A stretch of 27,011 nucleotides of DNA from the IMG/VR virus record IMGVR_UViG_3300013947_000112, positions 1 to 27,011 of that record; one strand, 5' to 3'. Under the pieces are notes generated by a model. It was not told the origin of the DNA. It saw nothing but the letters and a program-made list of their open reading frames with translations, and ran no database searches. How positions within the stretch are numbered: position 1 is the stretch's first letter; each line of letters starts with the position of its first letter. This DNA comes from a virus. This document shows, piece after piece, positions 1 to 23,543 of the stretch. The position numbers and the translations under genes were made by a program.

Positions 1-99
1 TGGTTCACAGTTACATCGGGGATTTCATCAGGAGTGCCGAGCATCACAATAAAATATCAGGAGAACACCGGATTGGATGAACGGTCCGGGTATTTCACA
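1..99. repeat. Terminal redundancy: identical to 26913..27011 (circular-assembly overlap or terminal repeat)
   Basis: Base-by-base comparison: tggttcacagttacatcggggatttcatcaggagtgccgagcatcac...ggtatttcaca occurs at both window ends. The implied genome unit is 26912 bp. Confidence 0.95.
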
Positions 100-405
100 C
101 TGAATTATCTCACCAAGTTCAAAGATGTGTATGTAAGACAGGATGGTGAATTTACAGTCACACCTTCGGTCATAAAAGCGGACAACACAAAACAGAGTGT
201 CAATGTGGAATTCAACACTGTGATAGACACTTCCAAATATGCTTTTTATGTCCGTCCTTCATCCGACTGGGCAACCGCAAAACTTGGATCCGACAACAGG
301 GTGACTGTATATATAGAGGCCAATGACACCGGACAGGAAAGGACATGCACTCTCACATTCACATACAAATATATAACTGTACTTACAATAATTCAATCTA
401 AATAA
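1..405 (+). CDS. C-terminal part of the ~917-aa tail-tip/host-recognition protein (5' part at 24564..27011); two BACON-like domains
   Basis: Frame 1 is open from base 1 to TAA at 403-405. It is in phase with the open frame from ATG 24564 once the 99-bp overlap is removed. SWFTVTSG..ITIKYQENTGLDERSGYFTLNY..VYVRQDG and SDWATAKLG..VTVYIEANDTGQERTCTLTFTY..LTIIQ fit the BACON pattern (W.t...v.v.aN.g..R.a.i.v....v.v.Q). Confidence 0.8.
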   Translation, partial: WFTVTSGISSGVPSITIKYQENTGLDERSGYFTLNYLTKFKDVYVRQDGEFTVTPSVIKADNTKQSVNVEFNTVIDTSKYAFYVRPSSDWATAKLGSDNRVTVYIEANDTGQERTCTLTFTYKYITVLTIIQSK

Positions 406-3084: not shown

Positions 3085-3098
3085 CTTATATATTACAG
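3085..3098 (+). promoter_or_regulatory. Class-2 upstream motif cTTATATATTACAG, 20 nt before ATG 3118
   Basis: The 13-mer TTATATATTACAG occurs exactly at 3086, 15271 and 23531. A variant TTATATATTCCTG is at 5781. Each copy is 15-20 nt upstream of the first ATG of an operon. Confidence 0.5.
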
Positions 3099-4218: not shown

Positions 4219-5130
4219 ATGGCAAATCCAATAGTAAACAGTCTTCCTGCATATGTTGATGAGCAGAGACTTCCGTTGATAGCAAAGACTATTCTCGGTG
4301 CAAAGACGGCTGAACTTCTTACACTTGTGGCCGATGTGAAATCAAAGACCGCACTCAATCTCATATCCACTGATGTCGTATTCGGTGATGGTGGATCTTG
4401 TGGTTGGGATGATGCCGGGACTTCAACCCTTTCACAGAGATATATTGATCCGGCATATCTCAAAGTGAATATGTCTTTCTGTGATAAGGCACTTCTCGGC
4501 AAATGGGCGTCATATCAGGTTGCACTGACAGCAGGAAAGGAGACTCTTCCATTTGAGGAGGACTTTGTAAACGGAGTTCTTGATGGAGTAAAGGTAGGTA
4601 TTGAGAAGATGATCTGGCAGGGAAAGAAGGCTGACGGCAATCAGTTTGACGGTTTTCTTGAAATTCTCTCAAATGAAGCGACCGCAAAAAAGGTGGTTGT
4701 GGCACAGGGAACGGGAGCATATGAAGCTATCAAGTCTGTCTATGCCGCAATCCCGAGTGAGGTGGTCATGAAGGAAGATACTGTAATATTTGTGAGTGAA
4801 GGTATGTATAGAAACTTCATTCAGGATCTTGTGGCTGCAAATCTTTACCATTTCAATCCGGACTATAAGGATGGTGAGTATCTTCTCCCTGGCACTTCTG
4901 TAAGGGTGATCGCAACTTCCGGTCTCAATGGCACTGCTGGTGCAGGTGAGGACAAGATTGTTGCAGGTCGTCTCTCAAACATGTTCTATGGTGTATCCGC
5001 AGAAGATGATGACCAGACCTTCAAACTCTGGTATAGCAATGACAATCAAGAGTTCAGACTTGCAATCAACTTTGCAGCAGGTGTGAATGTCGCTTATCCA
5101 GATGAAATAGTTTATACGGCAGAGGCCTAA
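4219..5130 (+). CDS. Major capsid protein (HK97-fold type, 303 aa)
   Basis: Position right after the protease/scaffold gene, typical size, and a strong terminator immediately downstream. Sequence looks like Bacteroidota-phage capsid proteins from memory only. Confidence 0.65.
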   Translation: MANPIVNSLPAYVDEQRLPLIAKTILGAKTAELLTLVADVKSKTALNLISTDVVFGDGGSCGWDDAGTSTLSQRYIDPAYLKVNMSFCDKALLGKWASYQVALTAGKETLPFEEDFVNGVLDGVKVGIEKMIWQGKKADGNQFDGFLEILSNEATAKKVVVAQGTGAYEAIKSVYAAIPSEVVMKEDTVIFVSEGMYRNFIQDLVAANLYHFNPDYKDGEYLLPGTSVRVIATSGLNGTAGAGEDKIVAGRLSNMFYGVSAEDDDQTFKLWYSNDNQEFRLAINFAAGVNVAYPDEIVYTAEA

Positions 5131-5144
5131 TCTCCAATAAAATC

Positions 5145-5172
5145 AAAGGGAGATTGAATGATCTCCCTTTTT
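5145..5172 (+). terminator. Intrinsic terminator after the capsid gene
   Basis: Perfect 10-bp stem aaagggagat (5145-5154) / atctcccttt (5161-5170), 6-nt loop, T-run continues. Confidence 0.75.
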
Positions 5173-5751: not shown

Positions 5752-5783
5752 AAGACCGGATTATATGTCCGGTCTTTTTTTTA
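5752..5783 (+). terminator. Intrinsic terminator
   Basis: aagaccgga (5752-5760) / tccggtctt (5768-5776), followed by T8. Confidence 0.8.
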
Positions 5784-5793
5784 TATATTCCTG
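5781..5793 (+). promoter_or_regulatory. Class-2 motif variant TTATATATTCCTG, 15 nt before ATG 5808
   Basis: 11 of 13 identical to TTATATATTACAG, with the same spacing to a start codon, immediately after a terminator. Confidence 0.4.
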
Positions 5794-15270: not shown

Positions 15271-15283
15271 TTATATATTACAG
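15271..15283 (+). promoter_or_regulatory. Class-2 motif TTATATATTACAG, 18 nt before ATG 15301
   Basis: Exact 13-mer shared with 3086 and 23531. Confidence 0.5.
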
Positions 15284-18965: not shown

Positions 18966-19526
18966 ATGAAAAAACTTGAAATATGGAAATCAATTCCGGG
19001 CTTCCCTAACTATGAGGCATCCACTGAGGGGAGAATAAGACAGGGTGGCACAATACTCTACACCTGCATAAACAATTCCGGATATGAAGTGGTCTGTCTG
19101 TGGAAGAACAATCATAGACATTGTTTCCCTGTCCATAGACTTGTTGCAAAGACATTCATACCAAATCCTTATTCTTATACTGATGTTGATCATATAAATA
19201 ATGACAAGTCAAACAATTCAATAGACAATCTTCAATGGATGAACCACAGGGACAATTGCAGAAAATACTATGATGAGAAGAAATACAGGGACAGGATTTT
19301 ATTGTCAGTTGCACAGGGACATTGGGTGAACATCTATTCAGGCAATTCAACTTCATATCAGGGCACATATACCACACCTATGAACATAACCATAGACTAC
19401 TATTCATTCACAGGCAATCTCATCACAGAACTGTCCAGACTGTCTTCGCTGTTCCCTGATTACATATTTGGTATTCATACTGATGCAGGAAATCTTTATA
19501 TACAAGGAAACAGAAAAGTGAGATGA
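18966..19526 (+). CDS. HNH homing-type endonuclease with an N-terminal NUMOD4-like motif
   Basis: ATG 18966 is preferred over TTG 18894, which lies in the terminator. EIWKSIPGFPNYEASTEGRIR fits NUMOD4. VHRLVAKTFIPNP..VDHINNDKSNNSIDNLQWMNHRDN fits the HNH_3 pattern. Confidence 0.75.
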   Translation: MKKLEIWKSIPGFPNYEASTEGRIRQGGTILYTCINNSGYEVVCLWKNNHRHCFPVHRLVAKTFIPNPYSYTDVDHINNDKSNNSIDNLQWMNHRDNCRKYYDEKKYRDRILLSVAQGHWVNIYSGNSTSYQGTYTTPMNITIDYYSFTGNLITELSRLSSLFPDYIFGIHTDAGNLYIQGNRKVR

Positions 19527-19831
19527 CACATTTTGAGATCGTAGAAGAACTGGCAAGAAACAGGACGGTGGAGGAGATTGTGGACAACATTTCAAAGAAG
19601 ACATTTCCATACACTGATGAACTTGCACAGGACATTTATCTTTCACTGCTTGAAAAATCACCTGAACTTATTGAGGGACTGTATGAGAAGAATGAACTCA
19701 ACTACTTCATAGTGAGAATGGTGAGGAACAATCTTTTTTCAAGAAACTCACCTTACTACCAGACATACATAAGGTGGGATGAGAGAAAGTCCGAACTCAC
19801 CGACAATATAAAAGACACCATAACCGAATGA
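19523..19831 (+). CDS. Sigma-70/ECF-like region-2 domain as a stand-alone ORF (102 aa)
   Basis: ELAQDIYLSLLEK (2.1/2.2-like) and ELNYFIVRMVRNNLFS (2.3/2.4-like). ATGA overlaps at both ends. Confidence 0.55.
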   Translation: MTHFEIVEELARNRTVEEIVDNISKKTFPYTDELAQDIYLSLLEKSPELIEGLYEKNELNYFIVRMVRNNLFSRNSPYYQTYIRWDERKSELTDNIKDTITE

Positions 19832-20064
19832 AAGAAATTGACATAGATGAACTTGAATTTGAGTTTCTGGCTCCTGACAAAATGAATGACAACGAGAAAC
19901 TATATTTATTGAAAGAGAGAATATCAAGACTTTCAACAGCGGACAGGTATATACTTCTGTTATATCTTGATCTGGGTAGTTATGCAAAGGTGGCAGATTT
20001 CCTGAACTGTTCTGCAACCACCATATATTTGAAGATAAAGAAAATAAGGGAGGAAGTGATATGA
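19828..20064 (+). CDS. Sigma-70 region-4 (HTH) domain as a stand-alone ORF (78 aa)
   Basis: RISRLSTADRYILLLYLDLGSYAKVADFLNCSATTIYLKIKKIREEV fits the region-4 pattern L....r.v..L....g.sy.eiA..l..s..tv......a...l. Confidence 0.55.
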   Translation: MKEIDIDELEFEFLAPDKMNDNEKLYLLKERISRLSTADRYILLLYLDLGSYAKVADFLNCSATTIYLKIKKIREEVI

Positions 20065-20381
20065 TTGACATACTTTTTATTGCAATTATCTGTGTCTGCA
20101 TAATTGATTTGTCAGGATTTGTGCAGGAAATGGAGGTCTTGTTGAAGAAATGGCTGAAAATACAGAGGGGTGAGGTGAGAATTCCAAAGCCATTCAGTTG
20201 CTCTCTCTGTATGACTTTCTGGACAGGACTGATTTATTTGATGATCACAGGACAGTTCACATTGTTTATGACGGCATATCTGTTGATTGTCTCAATTCTC
20301 ACACCTGAAATCAAGGACTTTATATACACTATCAAGGACTTTATCAATTTTATACTCAACAAAATACATAATTTACTATGA
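20061..20381 (+). CDS. Small integral membrane protein (about 3 TM helices)
   Basis: Hydrophobic segments ILFIAIICVCIIDL, CMTFWTGLIYLMI and FTLFMTAYLLIVSIL, plus a KPFSCSLCMTFW motif. ATGA-coupled on both sides. Confidence 0.55.
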   Translation: MIDILFIAIICVCIIDLSGFVQEMEVLLKKWLKIQRGEVRIPKPFSCSLCMTFWTGLIYLMITGQFTLFMTAYLLIVSILTPEIKDFIYTIKDFINFILNKIHNLL

Positions 20382-20632
20382 CAAACAAGGATTATAAATA
20401 TTTATCACAATATGAGGACAGGTTCTACACTGCCACAAGATCAAACTTTGCAAGAAATCTGTCAAGGTCTGTATTGGAGGAAATGAACAGGATATATGAG
20501 AATGAGACAGGAAAAACCCACAATATGAACTATAATTGTGGAACTTGTCAGTTGGATCTCATCACAAGACTGGGAAAGATTTATTATATGGAGAAGGAAA
20601 CAAGGGAGACAAAAGAAAAGAAGGAGGAGTAA
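20378..20632 (+). CDS. Hypothetical protein (84 aa)
   Basis: ATGA-coupled ORF with a CGTC motif and a K/E-rich tail. No family recognised. Confidence 0.45.
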   Translation: MTNKDYKYLSQYEDRFYTATRSNFARNLSRSVLEEMNRIYENETGKTHNMNYNCGTCQLDLITRLGKIYYMEKETRETKEKKEE

Positions 20633-20633
20633 T

Positions 20634-20993
20634 ATGGGAAGCACAAAGGATGAATTGAAACAAAGAGAATTGTTCATAATCAAGCAGTTGAGAAAAGGTC
20701 ATTCAAGAAAATGGATTGCAGCACAGCTTGAAGAGAAATATGGTCTGGCTTCTTCAACTGCTATAAATAATGTGAATGAGATAGGTGCACAGCTGAACAA
20801 GTCTTTGCAGGATTTGAGTGATGATGCTGCAACCTATATCTACAATGTCCTTATCTCCACCATAGATGACACAATAAATGATGATGACAGGAGAAACAGA
20901 TTGAAGGCACTTGAACTGTTGTCTAAAATCTGTAAAGTGGGAGAAGAGAAGACATCAACAGACCTGAATATAAAGTTCTCATTTGACAAGTAA
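20634..20993 (+). CDS. Putative small terminase subunit (119 aa)
   Basis: ATG 20634 is preferred over the overlapping track start 20538. It has an N-terminal HTH-like segment (GHSRKWIAAQLEEKYGLASSTAINNV) and sits directly upstream of TerL. Confidence 0.4.
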   Translation: MGSTKDELKQRELFIIKQLRKGHSRKWIAAQLEEKYGLASSTAINNVNEIGAQLNKSLQDLSDDAATYIYNVLISTIDDTINDDDRRNRLKALELLSKICKVGEEKTSTDLNIKFSFDK

Positions 20994-20995
20994 GT

Positions 20996-22252
20996 ATGAA
21001 GATATCAATAAGTTCCATAAAATGCATAGGATGGCAGAAGGAGTTTGTTGATATGTTTCTTGATCTCAAACCTAATGACAAGTTCATAATCAAGGCATCA
21101 AGGCAAAAAGGAAAGTCAACAATTCTTGAACAGGCCATACTATACTATGCATTCAACAATTCAGGTTCTGTGAGTTATTTCATTTCACCGACAAACAATC
21201 AGGGCAGAAAGGTCTTCAATGACATAAAGAAACTGATAGGTAATTCTCCTTTGACTGACAAGATGAATGAGACCACATGTGAGATAAGGTTCAAGAATGG
21301 CAGTGAGATTGGTTTCAAGTCAGCGGAAATGGGTGATAATCTTCGTGGTTATACAGTGAAGAATGGTGGTTTATTTATCGATGAGGCTGCATTTATCAAG
21401 GATGATACCATATCTCTGTTGTTGCCTTATATTACTGTGTCAAAATCTCCTATAATTATGGTATCAACACCCCGAAGAAAATCAGGGACTTTCTATGAGT
21501 GGTATGTGAAGGCTATGAAAGGTGAGAATGGTTTCAAATTTCTTGACGTGAATGACTTTGACAATTCTTTCTTTATCTCACAGGAACAGATAGAAACATA
21601 CAGGTCAATAATGACACCGGAGAAATTCAAGAATGAGATACTGGGATTGTTCAGTGATAACAATGAGGGACTGTTTGGTGATTACCAGAGTCTTTATCAT
21701 TTGCCTGATGATCTCAATCCTGTATATGGCGGTATTGACTTCTCCACCACAGGAAATGATGCCACAGTTATATCCTGTTTCAACAAATGTAAGGAACAGT
21801 GCAGTATATGGTATGATAGGGATGAGAAGGATCCTGTGAAAAGGGTTGAACAAATGGCAGAATTCATAAACACACACCCTACTTTTCAGTCAATATACTG
21901 TGAGACAAATTCTATGGGGTCAATTTATATCAGTCTGTTGAGAAAAATGTTGAGAAATCCATCCATCATCAAGGAGTTCACCACCACAAACACATCAAAG
22001 AAAGAGATTATAGAAAATCTGGTGAAATTGATGGGCAGAAAGGAAATCACTCTTCTCAATGACAAACAACAGGATTATGAACTCAATATATTCATTTGTG
22101 TTCCACTTTCAAAAGGGAATTACACATATGCTGCTGACACAAAGGCATCAAACAGTCATGATGACACTGTGATGGCAATGGCTATGGCTTGTAAGAACTT
22201 TGATGGAAGTCAGGGCACATATATGATAGGACATTCACATAAAATAAGATAA
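20996..22252 (+). CDS. terL: Terminase large subunit
   Basis: Walker A-like KASRQKGKST, Walker B-like GGLFIDEAAF, a C-terminal nuclease-like region (GIDFS...DDTVMAMAMA), and typical size (418 aa). Confidence 0.8.
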   Translation: MKISISSIKCIGWQKEFVDMFLDLKPNDKFIIKASRQKGKSTILEQAILYYAFNNSGSVSYFISPTNNQGRKVFNDIKKLIGNSPLTDKMNETTCEIRFKNGSEIGFKSAEMGDNLRGYTVKNGGLFIDEAAFIKDDTISLLLPYITVSKSPIIMVSTPRRKSGTFYEWYVKAMKGENGFKFLDVNDFDNSFFISQEQIETYRSIMTPEKFKNEILGLFSDNNEGLFGDYQSLYHLPDDLNPVYGGIDFSTTGNDATVISCFNKCKEQCSIWYDRDEKDPVKRVEQMAEFINTHPTFQSIYCETNSMGSIYISLLRKMLRNPSIIKEFTTTNTSKKEIIENLVKLMGRKEITLLNDKQQDYELNIFICVPLSKGNYTYAADTKASNSHDDTVMAMAMACKNFDGSQGTYMIGHSHKIR

Positions 22253-23530: not shown

Positions 23531-23543
23531 TTATATATTACAG
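23531..23543 (+). promoter_or_regulatory. Class-2 motif TTATATATTACAG, 15 nt before ATG 23558
   Basis: Exact 13-mer shared with 3086 and 15271. Confidence 0.5.

Follow-up and report, generated by a model that had tools for sequence, protein, structure and literature searches.

The DNA considered here, referred to as the window, is the complete 27,011-bp virus record IMGVR_UViG_3300013947_000112, which has direct terminal repeats and carries nearly all of its genes on the + strand. Within it, two short, adjacent open reading frames (ORFs) of 102 and 78 amino acids (aa) encode proteins that correspond to the two halves of an extracytoplasmic function (ECF) sigma factor, a sigma-2-like domain in ORF1 and a sigma-4-like domain in ORF2 (Table 1). 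The stop codon of ORF1 and the start codon of ORF2 share the four bases ATGA, and ORF2 lies in the -1 frame relative to ORF1; both points agree with an earlier note on this DNA, and the coordinates and the shared bases were confirmed. The ATGA at this junction is probably a point of translational coupling. Indeed, ATGA overlaps occur four in a row, at 19523, 19828, 20061 and 20378, linking the genes for an HNH endonuclease, the sigma-2 protein, the sigma-4 protein, a membrane protein and a CxxC protein. Since three gene pairs next to this one are joined by ATGA as well, such a junction is the usual boundary between genes in a tightly packed operon, and the genes from HNH to CxxC protein form, as read from these four overlaps, one translationally coupled string. 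The results point to ORF1 and ORF2 together being a two-subunit sigma factor of the ECF-like kind (group 4), with its gene cut inside the linker that joins sigma-2 to sigma-4; the probability of this reading is put at roughly three in four.

ORF1 is recognised as a sigma-2 domain through its family. The 16 homologues of ORF1 (45-92% identity, E-values of 1e-54 to 1e-15) are all 100-118 aa in length, and an exhaustive HMMER search of 1.84 billion cluster representatives delineated an ORF1 family of 639 representatives at E<=1e-3. Among the best 150 of these 639, whose split state was judged from length alone because they are known only as proteins, 148 are 79-133 aa and almost all are close to 100 aa; the two longer proteins have an N-terminal extension (171 aa) and a C-terminal extension (191 aa), respectively. 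When 131 family members were scanned singly, Sigma70_r2 (PF04542) was matched by 36 of them (best E 4.9e-6) and was by far the commonest Pfam match. An hmmsearch of PDB sequences with the ORF1 family profiles returned nothing significant. The nearest named cluster to ORF1 in the ESM Atlas is a 101-aa viral 'Sigma-70 region 2 domain-containing protein'. The AlphaFold2 model of ORF1, built from the alignment of 131 sequences, predicts six helices with a predicted local distance difference test (pLDDT) score of 92.8, and a tail that is disordered from about residue 89. A VIA search with this model, which is independent of Foldseek and covered 48,161 chains, placed sigma-2 domains of sigma factors, nearly all of the ECF type, at 12 of the top 17 positions (among them SigR, SigH, SigL, SigK, SigC, CnrH, BldN, AlgU, EcfG-type RpoE and sigmaE region 2). 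The Z-scores of these matches are modest (5.0-7.2), and values up to 7.2 can be reached by chance for helical bundles; weight is placed on the enrichment of sigma-2 domains and not on any single score. Five residues (D33, L34, Q36, Y39 and L42) are near-invariant over the 131 family members, and ORF1 keeps a D-L-x-Q-[DE]-x-[YF]-L motif. We take D33-L34-x-Q36, Y39 and L42 to correspond to the D-L-x-Q-E-x-F-L core-binding motif of region 2.1/2.2. In sigma70-family proteins, this motif contacts the beta-prime clamp helices. By homology in both sequence profile and predicted fold, ORF1 is a sigma-2 domain. The earlier assignment of the 102-aa ORF to sigma region 2 is upheld by this family-level Pfam, profile and fold evidence, and not by a direct match.

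ORF2 itself scores 23.5 bits against Sigma70_r4_2 (PF08281), just below the cut-off of 25.7. One homologue (L016) scores 30.0 bits against the same model, and a 78-aa homologue that is 95% identical to ORF2 and recorded on 12 contigs (P0017) carries a precomputed PF08281 match. ORF2 also matches sigma-factor PHROGs weakly. The model of ORF2 has a pLDDT of 84, with residues 21-77 above 86, whereas the first 20 residues or so are acidic and have little predicted order. Sigma factors, for the most part isolated sigma-4 domains, make up nearly all of its best Foldseek matches, and the top 12 all have a probability of 1.00. The best of them superpose with a root-mean-square deviation of 1.6-1.8 Å over 57-60 residues, and include SigC (2o8x; 1.6 Å over 57 residues, 33% identity), sigmaE region 4 on -35 DNA (2h27; 1.7 Å), SigL in 3hug and AlgU. 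Judged by profile and model, ORF2 is a sigma-4 helix-turn-helix domain with a preceding acidic linker segment. The near-threshold Pfam score and the Foldseek matches thus bear out the reading of the 78-aa ORF as sigma region 4. The profile searches that had been proposed as a check had this outcome: ORF1 alone has no Pfam match, over a quarter of its scanned relatives do match Sigma70_r2, and ORF2 falls marginally short of the sigma-4 threshold.

The position of the break is established by single-chain relatives. The viral contigs L020-L026 encode a single 169-aa fused protein. This protein (L020) scores 52.5 bits against the sigma70-ECF model TIGR02937 (cut-off 42.9), covering model positions 5-164 of 165, and also passes Pfam Sigma70_r2 (24.6 bits vs 24). 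Only the fused protein passes TIGR02937; ORF2 scores 16.8 bits and ORF1 has no match. The ORF1 family profile aligns to residues 17-81 of the fused protein (hhalign 98.2%, E 6e-14) and the ORF2 family profile to residues 102-166 (hhalign 93.5%, E 2e-7), and HMMER equivalents of both alignments were obtained. Residue 81 is the last to be covered by the sigma-2 profile and residue 102 the first to be covered by the sigma-4 profile; the break in the window thus maps to the 20-residue linker of the fused relative, exactly where it had been predicted to fall. A further fused form (L037, 165+ aa) matches both profiles. In another fused group (L014, L034, L038 and P0164), the C-terminal half matches neither the split sigma-4 profile nor any Pfam sigma-4 model, and may represent a domain replacement. 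A search with ORF2 for longer homologues found none; the fused forms came by other routes. A maximum-likelihood tree of 149 sigma-2 sequences is largely unresolved and places the fused forms in two groups among the split ones. The fused forms may nonetheless share a single origin, and the resolution of the tree is too poor to decide between fission and fusion in the history of the family.

A long open frame with a low-complexity TSAAQ/TSAAH repeat lies upstream of the sigma-2 start in L030 (1571-2500). It was considered as a fusion to sigma-2 and rejected as an off-frame artefact of the repetitive stretch.

Examination of the window and 35 further loci (L004-L038) from viral and metagenome contigs revealed that the division into two genes is widespread. 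In about 22 distinct loci, the window and some 21 others, sigma-2 and sigma-4 are encoded by separate ORFs in that order; no split locus examined has one gene without the other, and the two are almost always adjacent. The junction between them takes many forms (Table 1). ORF2 has its own ATG in every split locus, and its frame relative to ORF1 is -1 in L011, L029/L030, L036 and the window but +1 in most loci. Stop codons close the ORF2 frame around the end of ORF1 in both L010 and L036, in L010 until 88 nucleotides (nt) past the ORF1 stop, and a frameshift therefore could not fuse the products there. The unrelated ORF that intervenes in L008 indicates that the pair tolerates being uncoupled. 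Given the separate ATGs, the varied junctions and the closed frames, two polypeptides are, across the loci compared, the conserved state, in agreement with the earlier expectation of two products. The question of whether homologues are fused or split, which the earlier note had raised, is answered by the existence of both; its view that such a split is rare does not hold within this family, where it is common. The sigma-2 domain and the sigma-4 domain that define an ECF sigma factor are both present in the window, while a single polypeptide with both domains and a whole-protein TIGR02937 score above the cut-off are not. The two ORFs of the window and those of the other split loci are therefore classed as a split variant and not as ordinary ECF members.

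Table 1. Coordinates of the sigma genes, their neighbours and candidate promoters in the window, and junctions in related loci
Feature	Position or locus	Strand	Remarks
ORF1, 102 aa	19523..19831	+	Stand-alone sigma-2-like domain; starts at first ATG past upstream stop
ORF1 layout	residues ~1-88; 89-102		Predicted folded domain; disordered tail, N-terminal half of linker
ORF2, 78 aa	19828..20064	+	Predicted sigma-4 helix-turn-helix (residues 21-77) after acidic N-terminal linker segment (residues 1-20)
ATGA stop/start overlap	19828..19831	+	ORF1 stop and ORF2 start, 4 shared bases
NUMOD4/HNH endonuclease gene	18966..19526	+	HNH_3 2.5e-10, NUMOD4 4.1e-8, phrog_59 2.6e-34; context, not part of sigma factor
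106-aa multi-pass membrane protein	20061..20381	+	Conserved CxxC motif (KPFSCSLCMTFW)
84-aa CxxC protein	20378..20632	+	NCGTCQ; same position in 10/14 distinct viral split loci
Candidate small terminase and putative large terminase genes	20634..22252	+	Close conserved module
TTATATATTACAG, exact 13-mer, three copies	3086-3098, 15271-15283, 23531-23543	+	Candidate promoter element
Junction, 4-nt ATGA overlap	window, L029/L030
Junction, 8-nt overlap	L012, L035
Junction, 17-95-nt overlaps	many loci
Junction, 1-nt gap	L016
Junction, 13-nt gap	L006
Junction, 94-nt gap	L010
Junction, 161-nt gap	L036
Junction, unrelated 106-aa ORF between halves	L008 3019-3339
Fused protein of L014	2441-3097

Two explanations would restore an ordinary single-chain sigma factor. 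If ribosomes underwent a programmed -1 frameshift towards the end of ORF1, a fused protein might result, alone or beside the separate products. The ORF2 frame of the window is open for just 46 nt ahead of the ORF1 stop, which would permit such an event, and overlapping frames are the rule in this family. However, the codons of the overlap stretch, read directly, contain no X XXY YYZ heptamer, as the earlier note had observed. The relatives are also ill suited to a -1 shift: most have the +1 offset, the 13-nt-gap locus L006 leaves just 5 nt, L008 has a gene in between, and the closed frames of L010 and L036 and the ATG of every ORF2 have been described above. The varied junctions and the use of either alternative frame exclude an obligatory frameshift as judged from the aligned loci, and a frameshift of any kind is considered extremely unlikely. 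The split could alternatively be an assembly or sequencing error, a 1-nt indel in an ordinary ECF sigma gene, since a one-base change could join the frames and fused relatives exist. This possibility is effectively refuted. Independent assemblies repeat both the 102-aa protein (92% identity) and the 78-aa protein (95% identity, 12 contigs), which excludes a 1-nt assembly error; the length distribution of the best 150 family representatives and the differing junctions of the split loci point the same way. The homologues of ORF1 and ORF2 also place both well outside chance expectation, as real and conserved genes. The split is genuine and not the error that would have undone the earlier interpretation.

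The interpretation of ORF1 and ORF2 as subunits of one sigma factor has evidence weighing against it as well. ORF1 itself has no significant match in Pfam, PHROGs, NCBIfam or PDB sequences. A Foldseek search of the PDB with the ORF1 model gave nothing under E 4.5 and placed sigmaE region 2 only at rank 11, and the VIA scores are, as stated, of a size that chance can produce. We infer that the two halves interact, that they bind RNA polymerase and that they confer specificity for promoters. The candidate promoters are a further difficulty. Each exact copy of the 13-mer TTATATATTACAG lies 15-20 nt ahead of the first ATG of an operon, a variant occurs at 5781-5793, and the window has 7 matches with up to two mismatches vs 1.0 expected, an enrichment over shuffled sequences. 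It is the obvious candidate for the target of the phage sigma. However, the copies share no -35 element, leaving nothing for a sigma-4 domain to read, and TTATATATTACAG is not clearly conserved in five relatives. In four of these five it is not enriched over a reversed-pattern control, and only 2 of the 5 sites of the 13-mer in G001 look promoter-like. Because of the missing -35 element and the lack of clear conservation, the assignment of TTATATATTACAG as a promoter is speculative. The missing -35 element also keeps alive the alternative that the halves act like gp55 of phage T4 and a separate co-factor. In this alternative, the sigma-derived domains are not one sigma factor, and each acts alone on the host polymerase: the sigma-2-like protein as a gp55-like factor that needs only a -10 element or as a competitor of the host sigma, and the sigma-4-like protein by binding the beta flap, as an appropriator, or as a regulator of the ordinary helix-turn-helix type. 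The occurrence of the 13-mer upstream of late-looking operons without a shared -35, as at T4 late promoters, is consistent with such roles, as is the presence of T4 gp55 (7d7d_F; Z 4.3, rank 45) among the weaker VIA fold matches. The two genes are also not coupled in L008, L010 and L036, and relatives of the L014/P0164 type pair the same sigma-2 domain with a C-terminal half to which the split sigma-4 profile finds no match. Against independent action stand the constant co-occurrence of the two genes, the single-chain relatives that pass the ECF model and have sigma-2 ahead of sigma-4, as in the window, and the complete sigma-4 helix-turn-helix fold of ORF2, which superposes on DNA-bound sigmaE region 4. 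Independent action is therefore regarded as unlikely. It is very unlikely that the proteins are unrelated to sigma factors, for example a small helix-turn-helix regulator or terminase-associated DNA-binding protein beside an unrelated helical protein. ORF2 does have weak matches to the generic helix-turn-helix families HTH_23 and HTH_38, the pair sits just upstream of terminase genes, and ORF1 alone matches nothing, but the profiles of the two families both align with a fused protein scoring above the TIGR02937 cut-off, Sigma70_r2 dominates the Pfam matches of the ORF1 family, and the fold matches are dominated by ECF sigma domains.

If the two-subunit interpretation is correct, the pair would act on the polymerase of the host. 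No Sigma70_r2 (PF04542) match is found anywhere in six frames of the whole phage. Nothing like an RNA polymerase subunit is seen among the window ORFs searched, so the phage must use host RNA polymerase. With the ATGA overlap coupling their translation, ORF1 and ORF2 would be made from one operon at about the same level. ORF1 would dock on the beta-prime clamp helices of the host enzyme, and recognise and melt a -10-like element. ORF2 would dock on the beta flap and contact upstream DNA, and the two linker halves would meet in or near the RNA exit channel. The pair may in this way switch the host polymerase to phage promoters, probably late ones; the most plausible targets are the TTATATATTACAG-marked promoters of the structural and lysis operons. 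It is also conceivable, though rather doubtful, that the split is functional and not neutral. The halves might load onto the host polymerase separately; the sigma-2 half alone might drive -10-only late promoters at TTATATATTACAG, as T4 gp55 does, and transcription might be tuned or gated by the sigma-4 half together with the CxxC membrane protein that is always linked to the pair. If true, this scheme would be a novel form of regulation in phages whose host has translation signals of the Bacteroidota type.

Sigma factors of two subunits are already known, and the family described here differs from them in particular respects. The sigma factor SigO-RsoA of Bacillus subtilis, which has two subunits, was reportedly described by MacLellan et al. 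in 2009. SigO-RsoA (YvrI-YvrHa) is the cellular precedent for sigma-2 and sigma-4 functions on two polypeptides encoded by adjacent genes of one operon (PMC8103513, PMC7826278). Both systems are ECF-like in size, without regions 1.1 and 3. However, the Bacillus operon is named yvrI-yvrHa, with the sigma-4 gene first (PMC8103513), whereas in the phage the sigma-2 gene precedes the sigma-4 gene, which is the arrangement within a fused ECF gene. The phage proteins also belong to a large phage-encoded family with single-chain relatives that show a simple linker break. No RsoA- or SigO-named family is among the Pfam/NCBIfam matches of ORF1 and ORF2, a result that does not include a direct comparison with the RsoA and SigO sequences. 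The split sigma factor Sig7-Sig8 of Tn916 is experimentally supported and drives the main promoter of the element (bioRxiv 10.64898/2026.10.01.756105). Like the pair in the window, it is a two-subunit sigma encoded by a mobile element, with an RsoA-like sigma-2 piece and a sigma-4 piece. Unlike the phage-encoded window pair, Sig7-Sig8 is carried by a conjugative element of Gram-positive bacteria.

The late-transcription factors of phages T4 and SPO1 are also comparable. T4 gp33 is not known to be a DNA-reading sigma-4 helix-turn-helix protein and needs the sliding clamp, whereas ORF2 has a full sigma-4 fold, and no clamp or replication genes are seen among the window ORFs searched. T4 late promoters have a repeated short -10-like element without a -35, as seen in the window. 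T4 gp55 and gp33 (with the gp45 clamp) and SPO1 gp33 and gp34 are, as the pair in the window may be, phage-encoded two-protein sigma replacements that switch the host polymerase to late genes, and gp55 is sigma-2-only (bioRxiv 10.64898/2026.10.01.756105). Single-chain ECF sigmas (TIGR02937; of the Bacteroidota type, TIGR02985 and NF058625) share the domain content, domain order and total size (180 aa) of the window pair, but here the polypeptide is broken in the linker and no recognisable anti-sigma domain is found alongside. The linker between sigma-2 and sigma-4 of a single-chain ECF sigma threads the polymerase active-site cleft and the RNA exit channel, and is considered important for initiation and promoter escape. 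The present family comprises at least 639 protein clusters and is cut in exactly this linker; together with its fused cousins, it is a ready-made experiment on the purpose of the covalent connection. The kind of system is not conceptually unprecedented; it is a good natural case for what the ECF linker does.

What distinguishes this family is the sigma-2-then-sigma-4 order with a plain linker cut, the existence of single-chain relatives, and its nature as a large, purely metagenomic phage family. Few two-subunit sigmas are known (SigO-RsoA, Tn916 Sig7-8, and the T4 and SPO1 late factors), and this family brings in a further, independent lineage from phages; the ORF1/ORF2 pair could serve as naturally orthogonal split-sigma parts. 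No description of this split-sigma family was found in the literature, and phage ECFs and split ECFs are not captured in the census of ECF sigma factors (PMC7826278). The region and ORF1 have no match among 50,697 GenBank phage records searched by blastn/tblastn, and the family is therefore currently invisible to annotation.

The genes that surround the sigma pair form a conserved module, with the order in relatives of sigma-2, sigma-4, CxxC membrane protein, small CxxC protein, candidate small terminase and putative large terminase. In all viral split loci checked, the 106-aa membrane protein is encoded downstream of sigma-4. Its nearest named cluster in the ESM Atlas is DUF1360, a label carried by just 21% of the cluster members. 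Neither this protein nor the 84-aa CxxC protein has a Pfam family, and the membrane protein has no anti-sigma Pfam match. ECF operons usually carry an anti-sigma factor at the position of the membrane protein, and a co-transcribed anti-sigma is common, not universal. An anti-sigma-like role for the 106-aa CxxC membrane protein is a matter of speculation. The candidate small terminase has a weak match to phrog_51 (E 0.11). The putative large terminase, a 418-aa ORF, takes its name from size and location; the relatives that tblastn finds for it sit at the corresponding place in related loci.

The host of the phage may be a member of the Bacteroidota, as had been supposed. Shine-Dalgarno-like motifs precede 3 of 28 gene starts, which is the background rate, and the upstream regions are A/T-rich. 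The weak best NCBIfam matches are Bacteroidota-type ECF models. Both the scarcity of Shine-Dalgarno motifs and these weak matches fit a Bacteroidota host but do not prove it, and the support for this part of the earlier interpretation is indirect. No related prophages turned up when 185,579 species genomes were scanned, once with the ORF1 alignment and once with the putative large terminase, hence no host is assigned.

Finally, homing-type endonuclease genes are associated with this region. The stop codon of the NUMOD4/HNH gene overlaps the ORF1 start, and in L003/L013, as in the window, an HNH endonuclease gene immediately precedes sigma-2. None of the 35 loci has an HNH gene between the two sigma halves. 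NUMOD4/HNH homing-type genes do recur round the sigma-terminase module, at 1820-2089 and 4416-4748 in L013, at 4978-5166 on the - strand in L014, and at 4291-4626 in L031.

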